Below are positions 1 to 35,244 of a DNA stretch of 38,450 nucleotides, in pieces. The notes beneath the pieces were generated by a model. It saw nothing but the letters and a program-made list of their open reading frames with translations. It did not search any database and was not told the DNA's origin. This stretch comes from a virus. Taxonomy: Duplodnaviria > Heunggongvirae > Uroviricota > Caudoviricetes. Position 1 is the first letter of the stretch. Every line of letters begins with the position of its first letter. The stretch is taken from positions 1 to 38,450 of IMG/VR virus record IMGVR_UViG_2778261515_000019; one strand, 5' to 3'. Position numbers and translations under genes: made by a program.

Positions 1-351
1 ATGCGAGAGACAGTCGAAATTATGCGTTATCCCGTCACTCTTACACCCGCGCCGGAAGGCGGTTATATGGTTTCTTTTGTGGATATCCCTGAAGCGTTGA
101 CGCAGGGCGAAACTGTCGCTGAAGCGATGGAAGCGGCAAAAGATGCTTTACTGACCGCATTTGATTTTTATTTTGAAGATAACGAGCTTATCCCTTTACC
201 TTCGCCATTAAATAGTCACGATCACTTTATTGAAGTACCTTTGAGCGTCGCCTCTAAGGTATTGCTGTTAAATGCTTTTTTACAGTCAGAAATCACTCAG
301 CAAGAGTTAGCCAGGCGAATTGGCAAACCTAAATGTTGTAAACCCCAATAA
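1..351 (+). CDS. hicB: HicB-family antitoxin, C-terminally truncated (ORF ends inside predicted HTH, ...ITQQELARRIGKPK then 5 unrelated codons)
   Basis: N-terminal HicB/UPF0150-type sequence MRYPVTLTPAPEGGYMVSFVDIPEALTQGETVAEAMEAAKDAL; HTH-like ITQQELARRIG begins but the ORF stops 8 codons later; sequence character changes after ~337. Confidence 0.6.
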   Translation: MRETVEIMRYPVTLTPAPEGGYMVSFVDIPEALTQGETVAEAMEAAKDALLTAFDFYFEDNELIPLPSPLNSHDHFIEVPLSVASKVLLLNAFLQSEITQQELARRIGKPKCCKPQ

Positions 352-2036: not shown

Positions 2037-2064
2037 GGGACTCTTCGGAGTCCCTTTTTTTTTT
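2037..2064. terminator. Terminator hairpin with UUCG-type tetraloop, abutting stop of minus-strand gene 2071..3072
   Basis: GGGACTC-TTCG-GAGTCCC followed by T10. Confidence 0.55.
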
Positions 2065-2070
2065 ATTGTC

Positions 2071-3072
2071 TTAAGCAACCAAACGAAGGGTAGGTCTTGC
2101 TTTCTTAATTTCATGTTTAATTTCTGGCTTAGTAAGTTTGCACAGTTCATCAATCGGCTGTAAGGTTGCTGGCGATCTACGTTGCGCGTACTTCTTATCT
2201 AAGCTAGCCCACAGATCCCGCGCTTCTTCTACTTCAACCAAAAGAATATTAGCTTGATGATAGAACTTAACCGCATCTTCCCACGTTTTAGCATTCTTGA
2301 TCTTAGTCTTCATGCTGTTAAATCGGCCTAGAAGCTGTTTTGCTTGTGCCTCTGCTTCTTTACGTGGGCGATCCCGTTCTTCCTGCTCTGCTTTCTCTTT
2401 GGCCTTAATCGCTTCCAGATTGGCTTTATATGCACAAACTTGATGGTCGTGGTCTTCAATACATGCTGGAACTTTAGGTTTTGTCACATAGAATTGAAAC
2501 ACAGTTTTTCCTAAATTGCCTTCCACATCGATAGGGAAGGTGTAGGATTTCATGTCGCTAAGTTCAACGCTGTTATCGTCGGTAGACACCAAAGCCAGAT
2601 TATAACGGCAATAGCTATTTTCTTTAATGCGGATCGTATAAACGTTTGATGTTTTCGGCGTACACTGAACAACATTACCAAAAGCGAAGACAGTAGCGAC
2701 ACCACCACGGCTAATCACAACCATAGCAACGCCTTTCTTCTCTTCATCGTAAAACCCACTAAGTTCATAACCAACCACAGAATAAACCAGACGATCACCA
2801 GTTTTATTGATGAAGCTGTTAATCATAGTATGTTCTTCTACCGTCAGCTTGATACCGTGTTTCATGATTTCTTTAATGACATTCTCAGAATCTTTAGCGC
2901 GGGGATTCTGAATAGAAAACAATTCCTGATAATAATCACCGCCGTTAAGATTATCGGTGAATTTGAAGTTTGCGGTAACTCCACCGTCAAAGGTGGAGGT
3001 CAGACGAACGTTTACCAGTGATTCAGTTTCTTCTTTGTTGAGTTTTTTGTTGTCGATTGCGTAAATGTTCAT
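2071..3072 (-). CDS. Hypothetical protein, 333 aa, globular N-terminal region plus charged C-terminal coiled-coil-like region
   Basis: Long ORF, 27-bp gap to upstream gene on same strand; KE-rich helical segment KEKAEQEERDRPRKEAEAQAKQ; no family recognised. Confidence 0.6.
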   Translation of the reverse strand: MNIYAIDNKKLNKEETESLVNVRLTSTFDGGVTANFKFTDNLNGGDYYQELFSIQNPRAKDSENVIKEIMKHGIKLTVEEHTMINSFINKTGDRLVYSVVGYELSGFYDEEKKGVAMVVISRGGVATVFAFGNVVQCTPKTSNVYTIRIKENSYCRYNLALVSTDDNSVELSDMKSYTFPIDVEGNLGKTVFQFYVTKPKVPACIEDHDHQVCAYKANLEAIKAKEKAEQEERDRPRKEAEAQAKQLLGRFNSMKTKIKNAKTWEDAVKFYHQANILLVEVEEARDLWASLDKKYAQRRSPATLQPIDELCKLTKPEIKHEIKKARPTLRLVA

Positions 3073-3099
3073 AGTAGTATTCCTCTTTTAAATTAAAAA

Positions 3100-4101
3100 T
3101 TAAGCTGCAAAATCAAGTAATTCGCGGTCCATCTCATCCATAGCCGGAATGGTTGGAACATATGGTTTATATCCTTCTTCTACATCAAGAAGGTTGTTTA
3201 AGCTGGCATCAGAAATATCACAAGAAACCACGGTTAACGCTGGTTTGATAATCGGCTGATCAACAGTAACCGCCTCCGGTGCTTCTTTTTCTTCTTTCGC
3301 TTCTTCCTGGGTAGCTGCCGGAACTACTGCTACCTTAACTTCCGGCGCTTTAACTTCTTTTGCTTCCAGTTCTTCTACACGGATTTCAAGAACTTCAATT
3401 TCTTTTTTCAGACTAATGTTTTCTTCCATCAGCATAGCGAATTTGCGTTCCATCTCAGCAAGACGTTGCTCAAAAGCACGATGCGCATCAGACAGAATCT
3501 GAATATCACGCTGCTGTAATTCTTCTTCGTAGTTGGAAACGGTTTTTTCTTTAGTGGTTTCTTTCCATACTGCCTTATCAACAGCGTTAACATTCAGTTT
3601 AGCTTTGTTGGAAACGAAGAAAGAAATATTGAATTTCTCACCGTGAGCACAATCAGACCATGCACCAACAACACTAGAAGCCAGAGCAAAGTTTTTAACT
3701 TTACCATTAACGAAACGGCCTTTAGCATCGCGGCGGGAAGCGTGGATCATGTTACCCCAGAGGCTACCAGCTTCATCTTGCAGGATAGACACTACATAGG
3801 ATTCGTCGCCGTTCTTGTAAGCGATAGCATATACTTCGCGCTGGTCTGGTTTAACCATTGCTTTCAAAGTAGCTTTCTTACGCTCTAAACCACGGTATTC
3901 TTTTTTCCAGTCGGAACCAGCATGATAGAGAGTGGTGTACAGAGAATCGATAGATTCTTCTTTATAAATATTAGTGCCAATAGTTAATTCGTCGGCTTCG
4001 TTGCTGCCATAGTTACGAATTTCGATATCTGCATCGTACTGATATTTTGCGGTGTCTGCGGTGTTGCTGTAAACGGTAATAGAGAAGTTATTTTGTTTCA
4101 T
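3100..4101 (-). CDS. Hypothetical protein, 333 aa, N-terminal globular domain, central coiled coil, acidic C-terminus
   Basis: RBS AGGAA upstream of ATG; heptad-like LAEMERKFAMLMEENISLKKEIEVLEIRVEELEAKE; same length as neighbour; no family recognised. Confidence 0.6.
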   Translation of the reverse strand: MKQNNFSITVYSNTADTAKYQYDADIEIRNYGSNEADELTIGTNIYKEESIDSLYTTLYHAGSDWKKEYRGLERKKATLKAMVKPDQREVYAIAYKNGDESYVVSILQDEAGSLWGNMIHASRRDAKGRFVNGKVKNFALASSVVGAWSDCAHGEKFNISFFVSNKAKLNVNAVDKAVWKETTKEKTVSNYEEELQQRDIQILSDAHRAFEQRLAEMERKFAMLMEENISLKKEIEVLEIRVEELEAKEVKAPEVKVAVVPAATQEEAKEEKEAPEAVTVDQPIIKPALTVVSCDISDASLNNLLDVEEGYKPYVPTIPAMDEMDRELLDFAA

Positions 4102-4202
4102 TGTAGTAATTCCTTATGTTAAGTAGAAGCCTCCTTGTTGCCGCAAGGGGGCTTTTTTATTGGTTAAAAGTTTCATAATGTAATTCTCAGTCAAAGTTGA
4201 TC

Positions 4203-4385
4203 TCACCAAACGGTAGCTTCAATCTTCACCTTGATTTCATATTTCTTTAAGAGTTTGTGGAAGGTTGATTTATCGATGCCTTCATTTTTAAACCACTCTT
4301 CAATCCTCACTCCCGGCGTTAGTTCAAAGTAGCGTTTTGCTTTTTCCAACATAATCTCGCGAGTAAATTTAACAGTTCTAGCCAT
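4203..4385 (-). CDS. Small HTH DNA-binding protein (60 aa from ATG at 4385; ORF track extends to 4421)
   Basis: RBS GAGGA 8 nt before ATG at 4385; HTH-like GIDKSTFHKLLKKYEI; first gene of minus-strand operon. Confidence 0.5.
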   Translation of the reverse strand: MARTVKFTREIMLEKAKRYFELTPGVRIEEWFKNEGIDKSTFHKLLKKYEIKVKIEATVW

Positions 4386-4484
4386 GTTACATCCTCTACA
4401 TTGTGGATTATTTTTTCTCATAAAAAGAGCTTTTCGCCCTTGATACTTCTATTTATAAAATGATTTTCAGAAAACCCTGTAAAA

Positions 4485-4506
4485 CCACTGTATATTCGAT
4501 CAGTGG
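4485..4506. promoter_or_regulatory. SOS-box-like palindrome (CTG-N10-CAG core) next to a promoter-like element for the minus-strand operon
   Basis: CCACTGTATATTCGATCAGTGG; left half ACTGTATAT matches the LexA consensus half-site as I recall it. Confidence 0.35.
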
Positions 4507-4569
4507 GAGCACGAATTGCTAAAGAGAAGATTAATAATTAATCAATTCGTGCAGTATTCAACCGAAAAA

Positions 4570-4591
4570 GCACTGTATATCTAACCAGTGC
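4570..4591. promoter_or_regulatory. Second SOS-box-like palindrome
   Basis: GCACTGTATATCTAACCAGTGC, same CACTG-N10-CAGTG architecture as 4485..4506. Confidence 0.3.
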
Positions 4592-4742
4592 CGTATTAAT
4601 TAACAGTGAATAAGGAGATTTTCAGAAGTGAACAATCATTTCTCACTTGTATTTAGTAGAGAGAAAATCTTGCTTATCATCTATATGGGGACTGTTTTGA
4701 AAATTTCAACCCCTACCAGTGAGAAAAAGTATAAAATAATCC

Positions 4743-4756
4743 TTGACAGTTGTCAA
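4743..4756. promoter_or_regulatory. Perfect 14-bp palindrome overlapping a -35-like hexamer
   Basis: TTGACAGTTGTCAA. Confidence 0.3.
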
Positions 4757-4957
4757 CACTCATGACCTAAGCGAGAAAAGGCTATCAAATTTTTTGTGCG
4801 AAAATGGCAAATAATGATTATCAACCTTTATAACCTATTATGGCACGGGGACCTTTTGACAATTTCTTTTAAATCATTAAGTTACAGCGATTTTTGATGA
4901 TTTTTTGGTTAAATAATATACAAGAATTTTCTATCAAAATATTTGAATGAATTTAAA

Positions 4958-5232
4958 GGTTTCCCCGCGATATCCCCACTTTAGAAGATGTATCCCCGTC
5001 ACCGTCCCCGCGTAAAATCCCCGTTTTGGAAGCAAAATCCCCCGGATTAGGGTAGTTTCCCCGCGATATCCCCGCGTAAAATCCCCGGTATTAGATGCGT
5101 ATTTTTATGTAAGTATATGATTTTAAATGCTTTCCCCGTGGTGTCCCCGTATCATCCCCACGTTATCCCCGACCTGTCCCCGTGGTATCCCTTCCCCGTC
5201 CCTTTCCCGTCCCCGTTTCAAAGTGGGGAAAC
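4958..5232. repeat. Iteron-like array of about 17 TCCCC(G) motifs, many spaced 10 to 11 bp
   Basis: Repeated units TTCCCCGCGATATCCCC and CCCCGCGTAAAATCCCC each occur twice; run TTTCCCCGTGGTGTCCCCGTATCATCCCCACGTTATCCCCGACCTGTCCCCGTGG; array bounded by GGTTTCCCC ... GGGGAAACC. Confidence 0.65.
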
Positions 5233-5269
5233 CAGTAATGACAGGGCTTAGAAGCGATCCAGACCTACA

Positions 5270-5310
5270 GACCAATATACCTACATACCATCAAACCAAT
5301 ATACCTACAA
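5270..5310. repeat. Direct repeat of 15 bp (ACCAATATACCTACA, two copies 11 bp apart)
   Basis: Exact duplication read directly. Confidence 0.45.
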
Positions 5311-5658
5311 AGATATTATGCGCCCTGCGGGGCGCGAGTAATCTGCTTCGAATCATTCAAGAAGGGATTTGTAATAGTGGTTACTAGATGATTCTAGATC
5401 ACTTTAATGATCATGAAAGGTATTGGTATCCCTTCGGGATTGCAACCTTCGGTTGCCAAATTGCTTCCTGATTATTATTTCTCCAAAAGAAAGATTCTTA
5501 TATTCTAAAGATACTTCTTCGTTTTGATGATGATTTAATCAAAATCTATGAAGGAGGCGAAGCCGACTGAATACCAATTCCTTTCAAATTAGACAAAAAT
5601 TTCTCGTTATAAATAATAGTGAACTTACTTTGATTCACTTTTTTAGAGGATTTCCACT

Positions 5659-6108
5659 ATGATCAATACTAAAACTCCTTTCATTCTTCTGGGTCTGAAC
5701 CATGATGATAATCTGGCTATGATGCATGTTTTCGCTAATCGTGGTTATAACATCATTCGTCATTCCGAAGACTCCAATTTCTCAACTGCTTTCTATGCTC
5801 TTAAACGTAATGGTCGCCCTACGGTGATCGTAGACTGCTTTACTGATGAAGGTCGTGAACAATACAACAACATTCCGGCAATTATTGTTCGTGATGACCT
5901 GCCGTTTGATGTTCGTGAATATGACGTTGATTTAGGCTCTTACTATGGGATCGCCGATCTTGACCAGATTATGGCTGATTATGGTAAACAACCCGCTAAG
6001 GAAGCCCAAGAACACGATGAAGACGACGAAGATGATGATTACACACCAATCGCGTTTTCTTCTCACAATAGCTTCTACGGCTACGATGAAGGCTTAGAAA
6101 TGCTGTAA
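5659..6108 (+). CDS. Hypothetical protein with strongly acidic C-terminal tract
   Basis: RBS GAGGA; 149 aa; EAQEHDEDDEDDDYTP acidic run. Confidence 0.55.
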   Translation: MINTKTPFILLGLNHDDNLAMMHVFANRGYNIIRHSEDSNFSTAFYALKRNGRPTVIVDCFTDEGREQYNNIPAIIVRDDLPFDVREYDVDLGSYYGIADLDQIMADYGKQPAKEAQEHDEDDEDDDYTPIAFSSHNSFYGYDEGLEML

Positions 6109-6229: not shown

Positions 6230-6562
6230 ATGAAAGAATTTACCATCACTAAATCCCTGTATGACTGGACTGTTAAAATCTCCAGCAAAACCGTTTCTGT
6301 AAGCCCTAGCCATGTAGAAAATGATTGGGGCGTATCCCGTGAAACTATCTCCCGTAGTATGCATGTTCCGTTTGATCTGATGTCCTTAACTGGTATTCAT
6401 GCAATGCTGGAAGTTCGCGAACAATTCGAAGCTGGTAATCACAATGCGACTCCAGTTAGCAATCACCTTCTTACTAATGAAGAACGTGAAATCATCGAAA
6501 ACTGGCGTTATGAATATGCGATTCCTTACTACGAAGAAGATCAGGTAGAAATCGATTGGTAA
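6230..6562 (+). CDS. Hypothetical protein, 110 aa
   Basis: RBS AGAGGA; clean ORF ending TAA; no family recognised. Confidence 0.55.
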   Translation: MKEFTITKSLYDWTVKISSKTVSVSPSHVENDWGVSRETISRSMHVPFDLMSLTGIHAMLEVREQFEAGNHNATPVSNHLLTNEEREIIENWRYEYAIPYYEEDQVEIDW

Positions 6563-6666: not shown

Positions 6667-7518
6667 ATGAATACTGTTAAAACTATGAATACTGCACCGA
6701 CTTTCTTTGCTTCTCCGGTAGCTGCAAACGAAGATTATTCCGATGTTCGAATGACTTTGCGTGAAATTTCGGAATTTATTGGGGTACGTTTTGATAATAT
6801 CGAACGTAGTTTACATCGCCTTGTTAATCAAGGTGTTGTGAAACTCCCTCCAATGGAGGAAGTTAAAAACCACAGAAACCAGACAGTTAAAGATTATGTT
6901 TTTTCCGGTAAGCAAGGGCGATTGGATTCCATTGTTCTTATTGCTCAAAACGTACCTGAAATGACTCGTAAATTAGTAGAGCGTTGGGATTATCTCGAAA
7001 ATGAACTTTTAAAGAAAGAAGAAGAGAATAAAAGCCCGTTCCCAGATGCAAGCAAGATGACTAAGCTCGATTGGATGCGCGAAGCGGTTAAACTTGAAGA
7101 AGAAAAAGAACAACTGATTCAAGAAAAACAACAATTGGTTGATCTTCATATCCGTAAAGCCATCGACGCGCACAGTCTAACCCGCTTATTAGGCGAAAAA
7201 CGAGGCTCTACAAAGGTACAAATGATTCTGAAAGGGTTATGTACTGCTGGTGTTCTTGAGCGTCGTCTGGATGCTTCTGGTAAGCCTAACGGCTATGATC
7301 TGCTGCCTCCTGGCTATATGTTCGCTCGTATGTCGGCACACGGTCAGATCGAGTTCACTGCTGATGCTATTCCGCATCTCGTAAAACTCGGATTGCTTGA
7401 AGAAGAAAAGTCCGCAACTTTGAAATTGCCACAGCCGAATAACTCACGAGCAATCGTCAATAATACTGCTTTGCTGATTCGTCAGAATGCTGGATCACTG
7501 GAACACTTCGGACTGTGA
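6667..7518 (+). CDS. Phage regulatory protein (Rha/antirepressor-like N-terminal domain) with coiled-coil middle region
   Basis: RBS AAGGGGA; N-terminal MTLREISEFIGVRFDNIERSLHRLV resembles Rha-type winged-helix domain; ends with tandem stops TGATAA. Confidence 0.45.
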   Translation: MNTVKTMNTAPTFFASPVAANEDYSDVRMTLREISEFIGVRFDNIERSLHRLVNQGVVKLPPMEEVKNHRNQTVKDYVFSGKQGRLDSIVLIAQNVPEMTRKLVERWDYLENELLKKEEENKSPFPDASKMTKLDWMREAVKLEEEKEQLIQEKQQLVDLHIRKAIDAHSLTRLLGEKRGSTKVQMILKGLCTAGVLERRLDASGKPNGYDLLPPGYMFARMSAHGQIEFTADAIPHLVKLGLLEEEKSATLKLPQPNNSRAIVNNTALLIRQNAGSLEHFGL

Positions 7519-7602: not shown

Positions 7603-7833
7603 TCAAATTCCGGTAGCTTCTACCATTTCACCGTCAACCTGAACAAAGAATTTCAAATCAACTTTATGGAGTGATTTGTAGAATTGAGCAATTGAAATAC
7701 CGTGTTCACTCAATACTTGCTCTTTTTCAGCTTTACCTTTCGGTGCTTGATAGTACGCTTTTACAATCGCTGCCAGTTGTTCACGATCAAAACGGCAAGG
7801 ACGTCCGCGAGTAGCTTTAGTAGTCATAGTCAT
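7603..7833 (-). CDS. Small DNA-binding protein (AT-hook-like RGRP plus HTH)
   Basis: TRGRPCRF motif and HTH-like GISIAQFYKSLHK; RBS GGAGAAATGA context. Confidence 0.5.
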   Translation of the reverse strand: MTMTTKATRGRPCRFDREQLAAIVKAYYQAPKGKAEKEQVLSEHGISIAQFYKSLHKVDLKFFVQVDGEMVEATGI

Positions 7834-7861: not shown

Positions 7862-8464
7862 TTATTTAGAGGATTTACATTTTATCGGAAAAAGTTCTCC
7901 ATCGTCAACGGTCATAAAGAACTCTGCCTTAATCCCGTACTTCTTCAACCGTGAATAGTATGTACCCCGACTTATATCAACCTTGCGAAGCACTTCAAAG
8001 AACCCTTTAGGATCGTTGTAATAGTGGCTATAACGCACGTTAGCGAGTTCAACGAATAGTTCCCTTGTATCACCATAGCCTTTCTTGAAAGCCTCGTTAC
8101 GATAGCGTGTAATTGCGTGATTCAATCTCTTCTGTTTCAACACTTCTCGGATCGGCTTCCACTGCAACCGATAGATAGGACCGTCATCCACTCGATAATA
8201 ACGCTTGATATCAAAATCAAACCAATCTCGGACTCTCTGGAACTCTGTATGTGATGTTCTATGCTTCTTAAAGAAGTTGTGAACGTCTGTATAACCATTA
8301 TCGCGGTAAAATTCTATTAAAATCTCTTTCGCTTCCTCACGACTAAATCCAGATGTTGTGTAGTCGGTTTTTAAATGCTTATGCTTAACTGGTAAACGAT
8401 ATTCATGATCGGTACAAGACAAGGCTAATTCTAATTCATCTCTTTGTTGCTGATTAATTAGCAT
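7862..8464 (-). CDS. DNA-binding protein with C-terminal resolvase/IS-type HTH
   Basis: 200 aa; C-terminal DISRGTYYSRLKKYGI HTH; divergent from terL. Confidence 0.5.
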   Translation of the reverse strand: MLINQQQRDELELALSCTDHEYRLPVKHKHLKTDYTTSGFSREEAKEILIEFYRDNGYTDVHNFFKKHRTSHTEFQRVRDWFDFDIKRYYRVDDGPIYRLQWKPIREVLKQKRLNHAITRYRNEAFKKGYGDTRELFVELANVRYSHYYNDPKGFFEVLRKVDISRGTYYSRLKKYGIKAEFFMTVDDGELFPIKCKSSK

Positions 8465-8549: not shown

Positions 8550-10454
8550 ATGAAACTGATTTCAAATAAGGCAAAATTAAAAAAGATTCTCAGAAATATC
8601 TCTGCTGCAATTCGCCCACCTAAAGCCATGAAACCTAGCGAATGGGTAGAGGCTAATGTAGTTGCAACCGATGGTGTTAAAGCCGGATCGCTAATTAAAT
8701 TGCATCCCTTCCAACGTGGAATGATGGACGCGATCACCGAAGACCGTAGAAAAATTGTGTTTAAATGTTCGGCGCAGTTGGGTAAGACCATGATTCTTAA
8801 CGGAATTATCTTCCATCGGATCGCGAGTAACCCTACGAATATTGGGGTGTTGCAAAGTAACGTTAGGGAACTAAATTCTTGGATCGCTGGTAAGGTGAAG
8901 CCAGTATTAGAGGCAACCCCAGAATTAAAGGCGATGATCACCGACAAATCAGATCGCAATGCCGTTAACAACTCATCGATTATTCAGCTTCGTAACGGAT
9001 CATTCATGTATTTCATGTCGTTGAATAGTCCGTCACATCTTCGCGGTAAAACACTCCCTTTGATTATTCTTGATGAAGTTGATGCGGCTGATGAGTCAGA
9101 CGAAGGGAACCCGATCCAGCTAGCGGAACAACGCGCAACCACTTTCGGGGAAGATGCAAGGATCGTAATTGCTTCCACTCCAACCGCTCGTGATGGGGCG
9201 ATTAACCAACAATGGGAACTCTCGGATAAGAGAAAATATCATGTCGTTTGTCAGCATTGCGGACACCGACACGTAATGGAATGGAGTAACGTTTATTTCG
9301 ATTGGCATACGATTAACGGTAAGTCATTACCTAACCCAGATACAGCCGTTTACCGCTGTCCTGCATGTGAAACCGACTGGACCGAAGGGGATCGCCTACG
9401 TGCTGTTGCTAAGGGAGAATGGGTCGCCACCGAACCAAATGCGGAAGTAATCGGTTTTCATGCTAACCGCCTTATGTCTCCGTTTAGTTCTATCCGTGCG
9501 TGTGTGGTGGACTTTGCTGATAGCTACGCGAATATGTCCCTGGCAACGTTCTACAATACAGTCCTCGGTGAAACCTTCGATGATCTTAACGAAGACCGCA
9601 CAGCCGACGAATTAGAAACGCTGAAAACTGATATTAGACTAGACAATATTCCTGATGATGTACTGGCTCTGGTTGGTGGAGTTGACCAGCAAAAAGACCG
9701 TCTGGAATCTACCTTGCTGGGTATTTCTCGTAAAGGGCTATGCGTAGTTGATCACCGATCATTCTATGATGTGAACTGCGAACGCCACGAATCGCCAGCA
9801 TATGACCAGCTTTACAACTTCCTGAAAGCTAAATTCTATACCCGATCCGGTGAACGAATCCCGATGTTATCTGCTTTCGTGGACTCATCGAACGGACGAG
9901 CTACAAACGTGATCTATCGATTCTGTAGTCGGTGGCAAAATCTAACCGCCATTAAAGGCGCAAGCAATGTTGATGCACCAATCCTTCCGGTAAAAGACAC
10001 AAGAACGGGTGGTTTTACCCTTAAAATTCTGGGCGTAAACAACCTTAAAACGATGATCCGTGAAATGATTAACCGGAATTTGAGAGATGGCGATCCTCAC
10101 ACTGTCTTCCAGATTGGTGACGTTCCTGATGACTATTGCGAGCAATTGCTTTCTGAACAGTTGAAACGGCAGGGTAATACCACACGTTGGGTAAAAGTTG
10201 GTCAGCAACGAAACGAGGCTCTCGACTGCCTGGCTTATTCCTATGCTGCTTCTCGCCATGTACTCAATAAAATGTCATGGGAAAAACTCGAAGCCATCAA
10301 AGATAGTTTGAACCGTGAACCAGAAGAATCCGTAGAAGCTCCTAAATCGCAATCTGACGAGAAAATAGAAGAAACTAAGCCAATCACACGACCACAACGT
10401 CAAAACATCGCCAGACGCCCAAATAGAGGCCGTGGCTGGGTAACATCGTTCTAA
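8550..10454 (+). CDS. terL: Terminase large subunit, GpA (lambda A) family
   Basis: 634 aa; motifs LHPFQRGMMDAI, ILDEVD, NTVLGETF, IKGAS, RNEALDC align with lambda gpA as recalled; start of long plus-strand morphogenesis operon. Confidence 0.85.
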   Translation: MKLISNKAKLKKILRNISAAIRPPKAMKPSEWVEANVVATDGVKAGSLIKLHPFQRGMMDAITEDRRKIVFKCSAQLGKTMILNGIIFHRIASNPTNIGVLQSNVRELNSWIAGKVKPVLEATPELKAMITDKSDRNAVNNSSIIQLRNGSFMYFMSLNSPSHLRGKTLPLIILDEVDAADESDEGNPIQLAEQRATTFGEDARIVIASTPTARDGAINQQWELSDKRKYHVVCQHCGHRHVMEWSNVYFDWHTINGKSLPNPDTAVYRCPACETDWTEGDRLRAVAKGEWVATEPNAEVIGFHANRLMSPFSSIRACVVDFADSYANMSLATFYNTVLGETFDDLNEDRTADELETLKTDIRLDNIPDDVLALVGGVDQQKDRLESTLLGISRKGLCVVDHRSFYDVNCERHESPAYDQLYNFLKAKFYTRSGERIPMLSAFVDSSNGRATNVIYRFCSRWQNLTAIKGASNVDAPILPVKDTRTGGFTLKILGVNNLKTMIREMINRNLRDGDPHTVFQIGDVPDDYCEQLLSEQLKRQGNTTRWVKVGQQRNEALDCLAYSYAASRHVLNKMSWEKLEAIKDSLNREPEESVEAPKSQSDEKIEETKPITRPQRQNIARRPNRGRGWVTSF

Positions 10455-31863: not shown

Positions 31864-31896
31864 AACAAAAGCGCCTCTAGTGGGCGCTTTTTTGTT
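31864..31896. terminator. Bidirectional terminator between convergent plus operon and helicase gene
   Basis: AAGCGCC-TCTAGTG-GGCGCTT flanked by A-run and T-run. Confidence 0.65.
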
Positions 31897-33394
31897 ATAT
31901 AGCAATTGTTTTAGTTGCATAGCTGAACTTGTCGGTTAGATAATAGCGGATTCTCTCAAGTGCATGTTTTACCGCATAATTTTTATGCTTGACTTTTCCG
32001 TTACGACCGAATATACACAGATGATCTATAAGATCCCAGACCGTTGCAATATCCTTAGAACCATGTTTACGCAATGCACGACCGATACTCTGACGAACGA
32101 TAGTTGATTCCTTCACGGGATGACCGAAAATAACATGGTGCAAGTTCTTAATTGAAACACCAGTAGAGAACACACCATAGGATGCAACGCAAATGATCCC
32201 GGTTTCCCCTTCCGCTAATTTCTTAAATTCATCACGTTCTTCTGTCTTAACTCCACCGTCAATATAATAAACCTTGTTGTGTACCTTCTGTAACGCATCA
32301 TACATAAGTTTTCCGTGCTTAGTATTGCGGAACATCAGGAATACGTTTTCGCCCTTCTTAGCGAGTTTTAGCGCCAAATTACAAGCAAACTTATTTCGTC
32401 GTGGGTTAGACGTAATATACTTGATCTCTTCCGCATATTCTCTCCCCTTAACCGCGCTACATTCCTCATCGGTATAACGAAGGAAAAGACAGTTAATTTT
32501 CAGTTTTGTCACCTGCCCTTCTTCCATCAGGCGGTCAATACTCACGATCTTAGAAATATCACCGAAAAGCCCGACATACTGCATTAAATGGCACTTTGAT
32601 TCTTTCGGGGAACCAGTCATGCCGATCTTAAATTGGCAATGATTCATTCCGTTAATGATATTGGTAATATTTTTGGCACTAGCCTTATGCGATTCATCAA
32701 CTATCAACATTCCATATTGTCGGAACCATTCAGGAGGCATCTTGCAAGCTGATTGCCAGGTACTAACCGTGATTAACCTGTCTCCCGGATGTTTCCCGCT
32801 ACCACTCATCATTGTATGAATTGCTTCATAAGGGAATAACCGATAATCGATGAAATCATCCCTCATTTGAACCACTAGCGATGTAGTAGGGACAATGATT
32901 AACACTTTTCCGGTGTAATGCTCTAAGTACCAGCGAGACAGCATACAAGCAATCAATGACTTTCCGGCACTGGTAGGAAGAACCAGCATTCTACGGCGAT
33001 TATGAATACCCTGAAAGACTGCCTCCCTTTGATACCAGTAAGGATTGATTTTATTGGAACCGGAATACACTTCTAGGGAATCAATCCATTCATTAATCGC
33101 GTCTTTGGTTACATCTTCCTTCTCAAGTAATCTGGGGTCAATCCAGACTGAATACCCCATATTTTTAACGAAGACACCCAACGTTTTTAATAGTCCAATT
33201 GGTAGGGTGTTTTCATGCGTAAACAGTCTTATTCGTCCATCCCAGCCAGAATACTTGTAACGGGGGCTAAACCTAGCCCCTTCAACCTCAAACGAGAAAT
33301 AATCTCTTAATTCCATTCCGATAGAAGGAGAGCAATCAACCTTAACGAAACTGTAATCTTGAAAATGAATTTTAATATCTTGCATTAGTTCCAC
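31895..33394 (-). CDS. SF2 DNA helicase, UvsW-like
   Basis: Motif I LPTSAGKS, motif II LIVDESH; N-terminal IKIHFQDYSFVKVDCSP...LRDYFSFEVEGARF...WDGRIRLF strongly resembles T4 UvsW as recalled. Confidence 0.8.
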   Translation of the reverse strand: MELMQDIKIHFQDYSFVKVDCSPSIGMELRDYFSFEVEGARFSPRYKYSGWDGRIRLFTHENTLPIGLLKTLGVFVKNMGYSVWIDPRLLEKEDVTKDAINEWIDSLEVYSGSNKINPYWYQREAVFQGIHNRRRMLVLPTSAGKSLIACMLSRWYLEHYTGKVLIIVPTTSLVVQMRDDFIDYRLFPYEAIHTMMSGSGKHPGDRLITVSTWQSACKMPPEWFRQYGMLIVDESHKASAKNITNIINGMNHCQFKIGMTGSPKESKCHLMQYVGLFGDISKIVSIDRLMEEGQVTKLKINCLFLRYTDEECSAVKGREYAEEIKYITSNPRRNKFACNLALKLAKKGENVFLMFRNTKHGKLMYDALQKVHNKVYYIDGGVKTEERDEFKKLAEGETGIICVASYGVFSTGVSIKNLHHVIFGHPVKESTIVRQSIGRALRKHGSKDIATVWDLIDHLCIFGRNGKVKHKNYAVKHALERIRYYLTDKFSYATKTIAI

Positions 33395-33682
33395 TCCACA
33401 CTTGCAATATTCTTTATATTGTTTAGTGATTTATTGCAGTAGTGGAATGTTTCAGTTTTGCCGTATTCAATCCCGCCTATACCCACATCCAGATAGAGAA
33501 TGCAATAGTAAGACAATTTTCTCTGATAAATAGTAGTGAACTTATTATTTTAGAGGAAACTACTATGAAACTTGCTTACGCTGCCTAATGCAATTAAATT
33601 AGGCTATGTCACAACAAACAGTTGATAAATAGCCATTTTTATAGGGGAGTATCAGAACTCCCCTACAAACTGTTATTTGCAG

Positions 33683-34177
33683 TTATCTATACTCATTTGG
33701 AATTTCGATATGAAGTGTCTCACACAATAACTTCACATCATGTGCATCATTTTCATCAAACTCGTATCCCAGATGGAACATTACTTGACTATATGGTTCA
33801 ATACAGGAAACCTCTATTTCCTCAATTCTTCCTTTACCCGAAAAAGTTTCTACCGGAAAACAATCCCCATCATAAAGAATTTCACCTTCGTCCGTATATT
33901 CAAAACAATGCAAATCAATAATTCTGTTTTTCAAATCTTCCCATACAGTATGGTTCAATGTTGTATATTCCATCTTAATCTCATAAAAGCCATTAGCTTT
34001 CATTATTTCTATAAAGTTCTGATAATCGTTCTTTTCTACAAAAATGTCAATATCATTATGGGCTCTTGACTGATATCCAAGAAGAGCATCTACACCCCAT
34101 CCACCATCAAGAAAGACTTTAATCTCCGCATCTATTGCAAATTGAAGAATCTGTTTTACATCTGTTATATTGACCAT
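33683..34177 (-). CDS. lnuC: Lincosamide nucleotidyltransferase, Lnu family (lnu(C)-like), 164 aa
   Basis: Motifs FLDGGWGVDALLG, HNDIDIFV, FHLGYEFDENDAHD typical of Lin/Lnu nucleotidyltransferases; 495-bp ORF from ATG at 34177 (track ORF extends to 34246). Confidence 0.7.
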   Translation of the reverse strand: MVNITDVKQILQFAIDAEIKVFLDGGWGVDALLGYQSRAHNDIDIFVEKNDYQNFIEIMKANGFYEIKMEYTTLNHTVWEDLKNRIIDLHCFEYTDEGEILYDGDCFPVETFSGKGRIEEIEVSCIEPYSQVMFHLGYEFDENDAHDVKLLCETLHIEIPNEYR

Positions 34178-34200
34178 CTTATCATCTCCACAAATTCTAA

Positions 34201-35244
34201 TTAGGCGACCAGAGGAACTGCTGGTCTGTTTGATAAATCTCTGCATTTAGCAGTTTTCAATGTTGCCAAAACAAAAGTTAAGAAGATGTTCCTTTTCTCC
34301 ATGTCGCTTTCTTTGGCGTAATTTACAAGGTTATTCCACACAAGATAGTTGTTCAGATACTTGGTAGAAACACCGTTAAAGCCACGCATAAACCTCTTTA
34401 GCTGGCTATGGTAGCTATTGATATGTTGGATATTATAAATGCCTTTCTTGGCTTTGCCAGTCTTTAACTGCACAAGGTCAATGCCATTGGCATTTGTAAA
34501 TCTCACATAGGAGTTCATCTTGTCCGTAACAAGAGTGGAATTGGTCTTAATCCTACCATCATAAATATGATGTAAATCTCTTGTAGAAACTCTACCAGTA
34601 TTCGTAATCTTGGAGATAGACAAGCCATTCCTATTAACCGCACAAGGAACACATACCTTTTCTTGGGACAAGCCTCTGATATGTGTAGAATGACCACGCT
34701 TATGAGCCTTGCGTGGCATAGCAAATGTCTTACTCTTGCTATGATTGCCCTTGTACGAGATGGCGAAAAAAGTTTCGTCAGCCTCAATAATGCCGTCAAG
34801 GGTAACATCGTCTGCCATATTCTGAAGTGCATCCAAAATCTTGTGTCTCCAAAGGAATGCGGTGTTTCTGTGAATCCCACAAGCAACAGCAGTCTTACGA
34901 ATGGATAAGCCATTCATCATACAATCAATGTACTGCTCCCACACGGACAAGTCTTTTCTTGTACCAGACACAATGGAGTTCGTAGCAATCACGAAGGACT
35001 TGCCACAATCCTTACATACATATCGCTGTGTGCCATCTTTACGATGACCATTGCGAACCACATGGATACAGCCACAAAGAGGGCATACACGACCATTTGC
35101 AAAGCGTTCCTTTGCTACGAAATCTTCAATATTCAAAGACTTTACAAAGGCAGGACTTAAAAGCATTGTTTTAAGGCTTTCCTGCTCTGCGACAGTCAAC
35201 TTACCGATAATATCTAATGCGTCTTTGATAGTAGGCATATCCAA
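34201..35244 (-). CDS. IS1595-family (ISXO2-like) DDE transposase
   Basis: 347 aa; N-terminal zinc-ribbon CPLCGC...CKDCGK; DDE core; directly upstream of lnu gene inside the IR-bounded element. Confidence 0.75.
   Translation of the reverse strand: MDMPTIKDALDIIGKLTVAEQESLKTMLLSPAFVKSLNIEDFVAKERFANGRVCPLCGCIHVVRNGHRKDGTQRYVCKDCGKSFVIATNSIVSGTRKDLSVWEQYIDCMMNGLSIRKTAVACGIHRNTAFLWRHKILDALQNMADDVTLDGIIEADETFFAISYKGNHSKSKTFAMPRKAHKRGHSTHIRGLSQEKVCVPCAVNRNGLSISKITNTGRVSTRDLHHIYDGRIKTNSTLVTDKMNSYVRFTNANGIDLVQLKTGKAKKGIYNIQHINSYHSQLKRFMRGFNGVSTKYLNNYLVWNNLVNYAKESDMEKRNIFLTFVLATLKTAKCRDLSNRPAVPLVA

Follow-up and report, generated by a model that had tools for sequence, protein, structure and literature searches.

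The initiators of iteron plasmids are dimeric and are remodelled by Clp or Hsp70 chaperones, and known initiators and the Mu transposase are likewise handled by Clp unfoldases. In CTX-phi, the PrstA operon encodes a replication initiator. The O initiator of lambda is a ClpXP substrate recognized via the N-domain of ClpX; the last ten residues of SspB form the XB peptide, which binds this N-domain and competes with lambda O, blocking its degradation, and the LAA end of the ssrA tag constitutes C-motif 1 (PMC3983244). In this study a block of three minus-strand genes (positions 2071-4510) and a nearby array of short direct repeats were analyzed in IMG/VR virus record IMGVR_UViG_2778261515_000019, a Caudoviricetes sequence of 38,450 nucleotides that is referred to as the window. 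We assign a probability of about 0.5 to the interpretation that the block serves an uncharacterised prophage lineage of siphovirus type, found in E. coli, Shigella and Salmonella, as its core module for replication and early control. An earlier interpretation of the same DNA, made from the letters alone and called here the sequence-only reading, had suggested an accessory block of superinfection exclusion, defence/anti-defence or induction-linked function.

The three open reading frames of that reading are present at the coordinates it gave, and the same three coding sequences are annotated as hypothetical proteins in a RefSeq genome that is 99.2% identical to the window. They are, in order of transcription, with lengths in amino acids (aa):

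4203-4385, minus strand: 60-aa protein (MARTVKFTRE...), a conserved putative small helix-turn-helix (HTH) regulator
3100-4101, minus strand: gene A, 333 aa, with a beta-rich N-terminal domain, a coiled coil, an acidic disordered linker and an LLDFAA-COOH end
2071-3072, minus strand: gene B, 333 aa, with an N-terminal beta/alpha domain, a long helical hairpin and a disordered tail ending in RPTLRLVA-COOH

Related loci were gathered from IMG/VR via the 60-aa protein (25 loci), from RefSeq (three variants) and via homologues of B (seven), and were compared in a 38-locus table. Every locus collected carries the 60-aa gene followed by a protein of ~313-366 aa in the A position, and a B-position protein usually comes next, although B is only 80 aa long in one type and absent from another. 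The A-position proteins formed eight clusters, several of which were joined by weak similarity alone and two by none. Each of these eight clusters was accompanied by its own enriched repeat in a one-to-one relationship with zero exceptions in the 38 loci. The repeats, by type of A protein, are:

this window: TCCCCG
313-aa type: TTTGCCCCTGAA
331-aa type: AACCTACACTA
320-aa type: CCCCAAGATTCCA
cousin of the 320-aa type: CCCCGGATTAG, related to CCCCAAGATTCCA
three Salmonella types: ATGTACAAGAA, TGTCCTATAAC and GTAGGAGG

The 320-aa type and its cousin, with their related repeats, have N-terminal domains of A that are 54% identical. In the window the array lies 0.9 kb upstream of gene A, beyond the regulatory region, next to an AT-rich segment on one side and a second repeat on the other:

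4780-4957: conserved AT-rich segment, a candidate DNA-unwinding element
4961-5215, plus strand: ~15 direct repeats of the TCCCCG type, mostly 11-13 bp apart and specific to this A type, which are candidate iterons
5260-5336: second short tandem repeat, type-variable, consisting of the 8-bp unit NANACCNA six times and then a conserved GC hairpin (5321-5336)

The other seven types have 5-10 repeats, ~11 or 21-23 bp apart and nearly always in one orientation. Pairwise BLAST comparisons delimited two variable segments, the gene cargo (~2062-4126) and the array (~4947-5414), separated by ~820 bp that are 81-88% identical across cargo types. Because the match between gene and array is kept across non-adjacent segments despite recombination, it indicates selection rather than linkage, and points to a protein and its DNA site.

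The protein that binds the array is most likely A, as judged from the pattern of co-variation, because B proteins whose N-terminal domains are 60-65% identical go with three unrelated arrays and one type has no B. Two other candidates for the array binder were considered and excluded. B was rejected because similar B proteins sit with different arrays, and the terS-like protein because it is constant while the array changes. The terS-like and terL genes are 85-91% identical across types, and neither the terS-like nor the Rha-like gene co-varied with the array.

The 100 bp at 4858-4957 (GC 19%) are the least stable 100 bp in the 38-kb window and adjoin the first repeat, which starts exactly at the end of the AT-rich segment, a segment kept across types. 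No CI-type repressor and no known replication gene could be recognized in the prophage, which offered no other candidate initiator. Phased direct repeats, a meltable neighbour, an adjacent specificity gene and the lack of another candidate initiator together match the anatomy of an iteron origin, and the chances are about even that A and the array constitute a replication initiator with its iteron origin. Past the type-specific repeats, a conserved zone at 5340-5600 contains many AAAGGGATT-like and CTAGAA/ACTAGAT-like motifs in all loci; these motifs probably serve a conserved protein of phage or host origin as sites.

The sequence-only reading had described coiled-coil and acidic C-terminal regions in the two large proteins, and the analysis agreed, placing a coiled coil at residues 191-250 of A followed by an acidic disordered stretch, and a helical hairpin at residues 203-298 of B. 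The structural model of A was poor (predicted local distance difference test score, pLDDT, 53), while that of B was fair (pLDDT 78) and showed a beta/alpha N-domain ahead of the hairpin and a disordered tail behind it. Charge is split in the A proteins, with N-terminal halves neutral to basic and C-terminal halves strongly acidic, and an HxSxR motif was invariant in a diverse alignment of A proteins. The earlier statement that A and B belong to no recognizable family was borne out by searches of Pfam, PHROGs, PADLOC and NCBIfam, none of which gave a match. Sequence-profile searches of the PDB with A and B returned coiled-coil noise only, and Foldseek searches with the B model against PDB and BFVD gave no significant match. 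The A superfamily comprises 213 clusters, all named 'hypothetical', from E. coli, Shigella and Salmonella. When 1.84 billion representatives were searched exhaustively with a hidden Markov model of the A family, four real relatives were added, the remaining output being two repeat-protein artefacts (P0024 and P0025) and one 41-residue fragment. The predicted order of strands and helices is alike in A and B, but hhalign found nothing to support their being paralogues.

The gene for the small HTH protein was found where it had been placed, while its designation as an HTH protein is based on a sequence pattern and on paralogy, with no family match in Pfam, PHROGs, PADLOC or NCBIfam; no relative of it was found in GTDB representative genomes. 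Two paralogues of 76 aa (7603-7833) and 200 aa (7862-8464) are encoded on the minus strand upstream of terL, the longer one containing the motif of the 60-aa protein twice, and the phage encodes with these three a small family of putative HTH modules. An additional 45-aa open reading frame at 4628-4765 has a good ribosome-binding site but was excluded by frame-shifting indels in relatives.

The region between the operon and the AT-rich segment contains the following elements:

4422-4441, minus strand: small hairpin with a T-run, directly upstream of the ribosome-binding site of the HTH gene and kept in both regulatory classes
4486-4505: LexA-like box 1, 20-mer CACTGTATATTCGATCAGTG, 16-mer CTGTATATTCGATCAG at 4488-4503, 15.2 bits
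4508-4552: operator-like element, with AGCACGAATTGCTAAAG perfectly kept in both regulatory classes and the inverted partner CAATTCGTGC
4571-4590: LexA-like box 2, 20-mer CACTGTATATCTAACCAGTG, 16-mer CTGTATATCTAACCAG at 4573-4588, 20.7 bits
4589-4608: degenerate third box, in which CCG replaces CTG here; most relatives have it intact, as a tandem partner of box 2
4756-4728, minus strand: strong sigma-70-like promoter TTGACA-17-TATACT, kept in relatives and directed to the operon, away from the array

The CTG-N10-CAG palindrome that had been likened to a LexA box in the sequence-only reading is real and occurs in two copies, which have the top two SOS-box scores in the 38 kb. The weight matrix used for scoring was compiled from literature LexA sites of E. 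coli, which themselves score 12.5-24.2 bits (median 19.4). Among 200 random 38-kb sequences, 15.2 bits was reached in 4% and 20.7 bits in none. Box 2 is identical at 17 of 20 positions to the SOS box of K-12 dinB (CACTGTATACTTTACCAGTG, read from the genome). The boxes had also been assigned to a promoter-like region; they do not overlap the sole strong sigma-70-like promoter but lie in the leader, ~130-230 nucleotides (nt) downstream of it, and a weak candidate promoter, TTGAAT-16-AATTAT (8/12), is located between the two. The -35 element of the strong leftward promoter lies inside a perfect palindrome, TTGACA-GT-TGTCAA (4743-4756), which may be an operator. The hairpin at 4422-4441 is a possible attenuator; its predicted fold is weak (z = -1.5, not significant). 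A third LexA-like site (GACTGTTAAAATCTCCAGCA, 14.2 bits) was found at 6268-6287, within the 5' end of a 110-aa gene in the rightward operon.

Two or three boxes at identical 18-bp and 85-bp spacing were seen in 21 of the 38 loci, to which the seven Salmonella loci contribute one (L034). In E. coli the regulatory segment occurs in at least two forms, with boxes or with none, and the box-less form has other operator-like repeats. Regulatory class assorts independently of cargo type. The cassette with predicted control by LexA is one of at least three that can replace one another, and because identical cargo types also sit behind a box-less regulatory region, this putative control is no inherent property of the cargo. 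A link to DNA damage, as suggested before, is plausible in view of the strength of the LexA-like boxes and of their conserved position in related E. coli and Salmonella loci, and the induction-linked element of the sequence-only reading is thereby supported. Two Salmonella loci, L036 and L037, have no LexA-like boxes; instead, additional copies of the repeat of their own type (GTAGGAGG) are located in the leader/promoter region ahead of the small gene, an arrangement suggesting that the A-type protein regulates its own expression.

The C-termini of both large proteins resemble signals for the host unfoldase. B tails end in [RK]P[TV]LR[LIV]VA (ARPTLRLVA, KKPTLRIVA, DRPTLRLVA and EKPVLRLVA, for example), even among B proteins that cannot otherwise be aligned and including the 80-aa version. 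The C-terminus of E. coli SspB is GGRPALRVVK, with which the B tail shares R, P, L, R and V, and the tail of B in the window is predicted to be flexible (pLDDT <50). In six of the eight types the A protein terminates in AA, namely FAA in this window and LAA, YAA, KAA, RAA and EAA. We propose, on the strength of these tail similarities, that B may tether ClpX and that A may be a client of ClpX(P). No Pfam match to the substrate-binding domain of SspB was found in B, and SspB was not among the Foldseek matches in the PDB. The A-position protein of type-3 loci, L023 among them, ends in Tyr-Ala repeats that differ in number from strain to strain, from ...SAYAYAA to ...SAYAYAYAYAYAYAA.

These observations can be combined in a mechanism, of which the genes, boxes, arrays, one-to-one co-variation and tail similarities were observed, whereas the binding of DNA by A, the origin function, the docking on ClpX and the repression by LexA are inferred. 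In the lysogen, LexA bound at box 1 and box 2, and at the third tandem box in most relatives, would repress the operon, and a protein binding the AGCACGAATTGCTAAAG element would join LexA in holding expression low; the 60-aa HTH protein together with the operator between the boxes may provide the phage-specific control. Upon DNA damage the 60-aa regulator, A and B would be produced, so that replication would be licensed by the SOS response. A would act as a dimeric sequence-specific binder whose N-terminal domain recognizes the TCCCCG units; by occupying the iterons it would melt the AT-rich DNA, and phage replication would start there. B would be an exchangeable accessory protein whose flexible tail docks on the N-domain of host ClpX in the fashion of SspB, and the ClpX(P) recruited by B would either remodel A or rapidly clear it by way of its ssrA-like AA end. 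The complete scheme, in which a phage-encoded mimic of the SspB tail and an ssrA-like-tagged initiator with no known Rep relative recruit host ClpX to the origin, with LexA licensing many members of the lineage, is put forward as tentative and somewhat improbable as a whole.

Several points weigh against the replication-module interpretation. Neither A nor B resembles a known initiator, helicase loader or SspB in sequence or fold, and the model of A (pLDDT 53) is too poor to support a DNA-binding fold. Different regulatory cassettes without boxes are present in 17 of the 38 loci, and in the window the position of the boxes, 130-230 nt downstream of the sole strong promoter, does not suggest an obvious mode of repression by LexA. 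A ends in CQ or GQ in two types, and one type manages without B. DnaA boxes and IHF sites showed no enrichment and no exact site near the array, although such sites are not obligatory at phage origins. The whole case is computational. Only half of what the sequence-only reading had named as able to overturn it was found: related phages do show conserved synteny, and a routine part in replication is likely, but neither sequence nor fold connects A or B with known replication proteins.

The co-variation itself has a second possible explanation, since the repressors and operator arrays of heteroimmune phages co-vary as well. The block could thus be a heteroimmunity or regulatory module in which A is a Mu-repressor-like protein that coats type-specific operators and sets immunity or early transcription, with B tuning A via ClpX. 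The location of the array between divergent transcription units, the lack of a recognizable CI-type repressor in the prophage and the extra repeats by the operon leader of the Salmonella loci L036 and L037 would fit such a role, and the Mu repressor, with its N-terminal DNA-binding domain, leucine-zipper middle and ClpXP-sensitive tail, offers a parallel to A. A Mu-repressor-like operator array is nevertheless less likely because the type-specific repeats miss the promoters: they overlap no promoter in the window, both promoters being located in the conserved flanks at least 200 bp away. Furthermore, 15 or more repeats in a single orientation, with a phasing of 11 or 22 bp and next to the DNA that melts most easily, are origin-like rather than operator-like, and LexA boxes ahead of a maintenance repressor would be the wrong induction logic. 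We regard this explanation as unlikely, though it is the strongest of the alternatives.

The idea of the sequence-only reading, an SOS-induced accessory module for superinfection exclusion, defence/anti-defence or antirepression carried as exchangeable hot-spot cargo, is in accord with a hypervariable, hairpin-bounded cassette and with orphan proteins restricted to enterobacterial prophages. Phages 186 and N15 and the Gifsy phages have antirepressors under the control of LexA, and a ClpX-docking tail could equally serve to hijack proteolysis. However, PADLOC models gave no significant match to the three proteins and their neighbours, the antirepressor families Ant/KilAC and Tum had no PHROG or Pfam match in A or B, the position is filled in 38 of 38 loci, and many loci with identical cargo have no LexA boxes. 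Such a module would also leave the strict pairing between protein type and distant array unexplained. With no defence-model match, a presence in all loci and co-variation with the array, a pattern that marks a protein and its site rather than a moron, the proposal of an accessory exclusion or defence block is not supported, and this explanation in its broader form is considered improbable. The least probable of the alternatives, a centromere-like or packaging site on whose repeats A (with B) builds a complex in the manner of ParR/parC or of the small terminase at pac/cosB, draws on an 11-bp phasing that recalls parC-type and omega-type centromeres and terminase sites, on the position of the block between the terS-like gene and terL, and on a layout of A that corresponds in general outline to a DNA-binding head, a coiled coil and a partner-binding tail, but it is very doubtful for a prophage that is integrated and has no ParA- or ParM-type nucleoside triphosphatase nearby, and in which A and the array change fully from type to type, with differing A tails, while the terS-like and terL genes keep an identity of 85-91%.

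Returning to the replication-module interpretation, the edges of the exchangeable gene cassette coincide with two hairpins:

2036-2055: GC hairpin, distal edge of the variable gene cassette
4125-4156: hairpin in the gap that separates A from the HTH gene, proximal boundary of the variable gene cassette

A tight operon ending at a strong terminator had been described here. The spacing is tight between A and B (27 nt), but the HTH gene and A are separated by 101 nt that contain the second of these hairpins. The supposed terminator did not hold up: the hairpin at 2036-2055 exists, but its T10 run is on the plus strand, and on the operon strand A10 comes before it and UAGUAAGUUU after it. Similarity between cargo types breaks off at ~2061-2064, near this hairpin. 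The hairpin at 4125-4156 has greater stability, plus a U-run, in the plus sense. The exchange breakpoints of the gene cassette therefore fall at two hairpins with U-runs opposite to the gene strand, which could be recombination boundaries or terminators of antisense transcription.

As judged from the best-matching E. coli genome, the prophage is inserted at the 3' end of hicB, between yncJ-hicA and ydcR, and is ~37-38 kb long; the best RefSeq match to the window is the 99.2%-identical genome mentioned above. Integration sites differ within the lineage, with at least two in use: most E. coli have the prophage at the 3' end of hicB, and one E. coli and Salmonella have it beside ycdX (a PHP-domain gene) (window 1-351 and ~38.4 kb; L003 and L031-L037). 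Matches were found by megablast in 63 of 5426 complete E. coli genomes (~1%), with the full 3 kb covered in only six, while megablast against phage and plasmid collections gave no match to the window. A literature search for a described hicB-integrated phage returned nothing relevant, and an Rfam scan of the window detected no RNA family. The gene set is siphovirus-like and includes a GpA-type large terminase, portal, protease-capsid fusion, tape measure, tail fibres, endolysin and a large serine recombinase; the closest relative of the terminase among 50,697 phage records has at most 43% identity. The genes around the block include:

terS-like gene (phrog_57, E = 1e-10): one flank of the block
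6667-7518: Rha/Ant-like gene, separate from A and B
8550-10454: terL, the other flank of the block

Both flanking identities, as given in the sequence-only reading, were upheld. Between the endolysin and the integrase, at 31895-35244, the window contains genes for a UvsW-like helicase, an aminoglycoside-2''-nucleotidyltransferase-like protein and an IS1595-family transposase. This segment is missing from OkiPb01713, a relative with 99% identity, which indicates an accessory insertion rather than a phage replication module. In L002 (E. coli HeN100) an ISApl1-mcr-1-pap2 unit, conferring colistin resistance, lies at 2255-5856 between the terS-like gene and the cargo cassette, equivalent to ~1475-1766 of the window, with two copies of ISKpn26 close by.

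If the replication-module interpretation is correct, it supplies the missing replication and control genes of a prophage group that has no close relative among 50,697 phages, adds a new protein family to the few origin-binding initiators, and provides eight natural pairs of protein and DNA site for the study of how specificity evolves. The complete scheme with recruitment of ClpX, if true, would further make B the first adaptor encoded by a phage to tether ClpX, and A a new initiator fold diversifying jointly with its iterons. An SspB-like tail would be a simple way for a phage to plug its own proteins into host ClpXP, and the exchange of LexA and non-LexA cassettes suggests that SOS dependence can be gained or lost through recombination. 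For hypervariable orphan cassettes in general, the neighbouring non-coding DNA should be checked before they are labelled 'defence hot spots'.

Compared with the known systems, the locus resembles the SOS-box promoters of phages (CTX-phi PrstA, GIL01 P1, 186 Tum, N15 AntC and the Gifsy antirepressors) in having LexA-like sites before an early operon. It differs from them in that the boxes are in the leader, flank a phage-specific operator and belong to one of several interchangeable cassettes, and in that the products are unrelated to Tum, Ant or RstA. Like SspB, B has a tail that follows a flexible region and matches the XB tail RPALRVVK; unlike SspB, B is phage-encoded, has a coiled-coil/helical-hairpin structure without the SspB substrate-binding domain, and is a candidate, from its sequence, for binding ClpX. 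The iteron plasmids (P1 RepA, pSC101 RepA, RK2 TrfA and R6K pi) differ from the locus in their Rep_3/RepA-type winged-helix signature and DnaA boxes, both of which are lacking here, and the locus is part of an integrated prophage; the helically phased direct repeats, the unwinding element and the adjacent rep gene are shared, and some of the relatives described here have extra repeats near the rep promoter. The lambdoid O-P genes and ori-lambda differ from the locus in several ways: neither A nor B resembles O or P in sequence or fold, the candidate iterons here are located outside the gene at a distance of 0.9 kb and are more numerous and shorter (~15 hexamer cores at 11 bp), and LexA-like boxes are found in place of CI operators. 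The likeness to this system lies in its organization: an early operon, an initiator DNA-binding domain (here the candidate A) that varies in step with type-specific iterons next to AT-rich DNA, a partner protein that is likewise exchangeable, and mosaic exchange among related phages.

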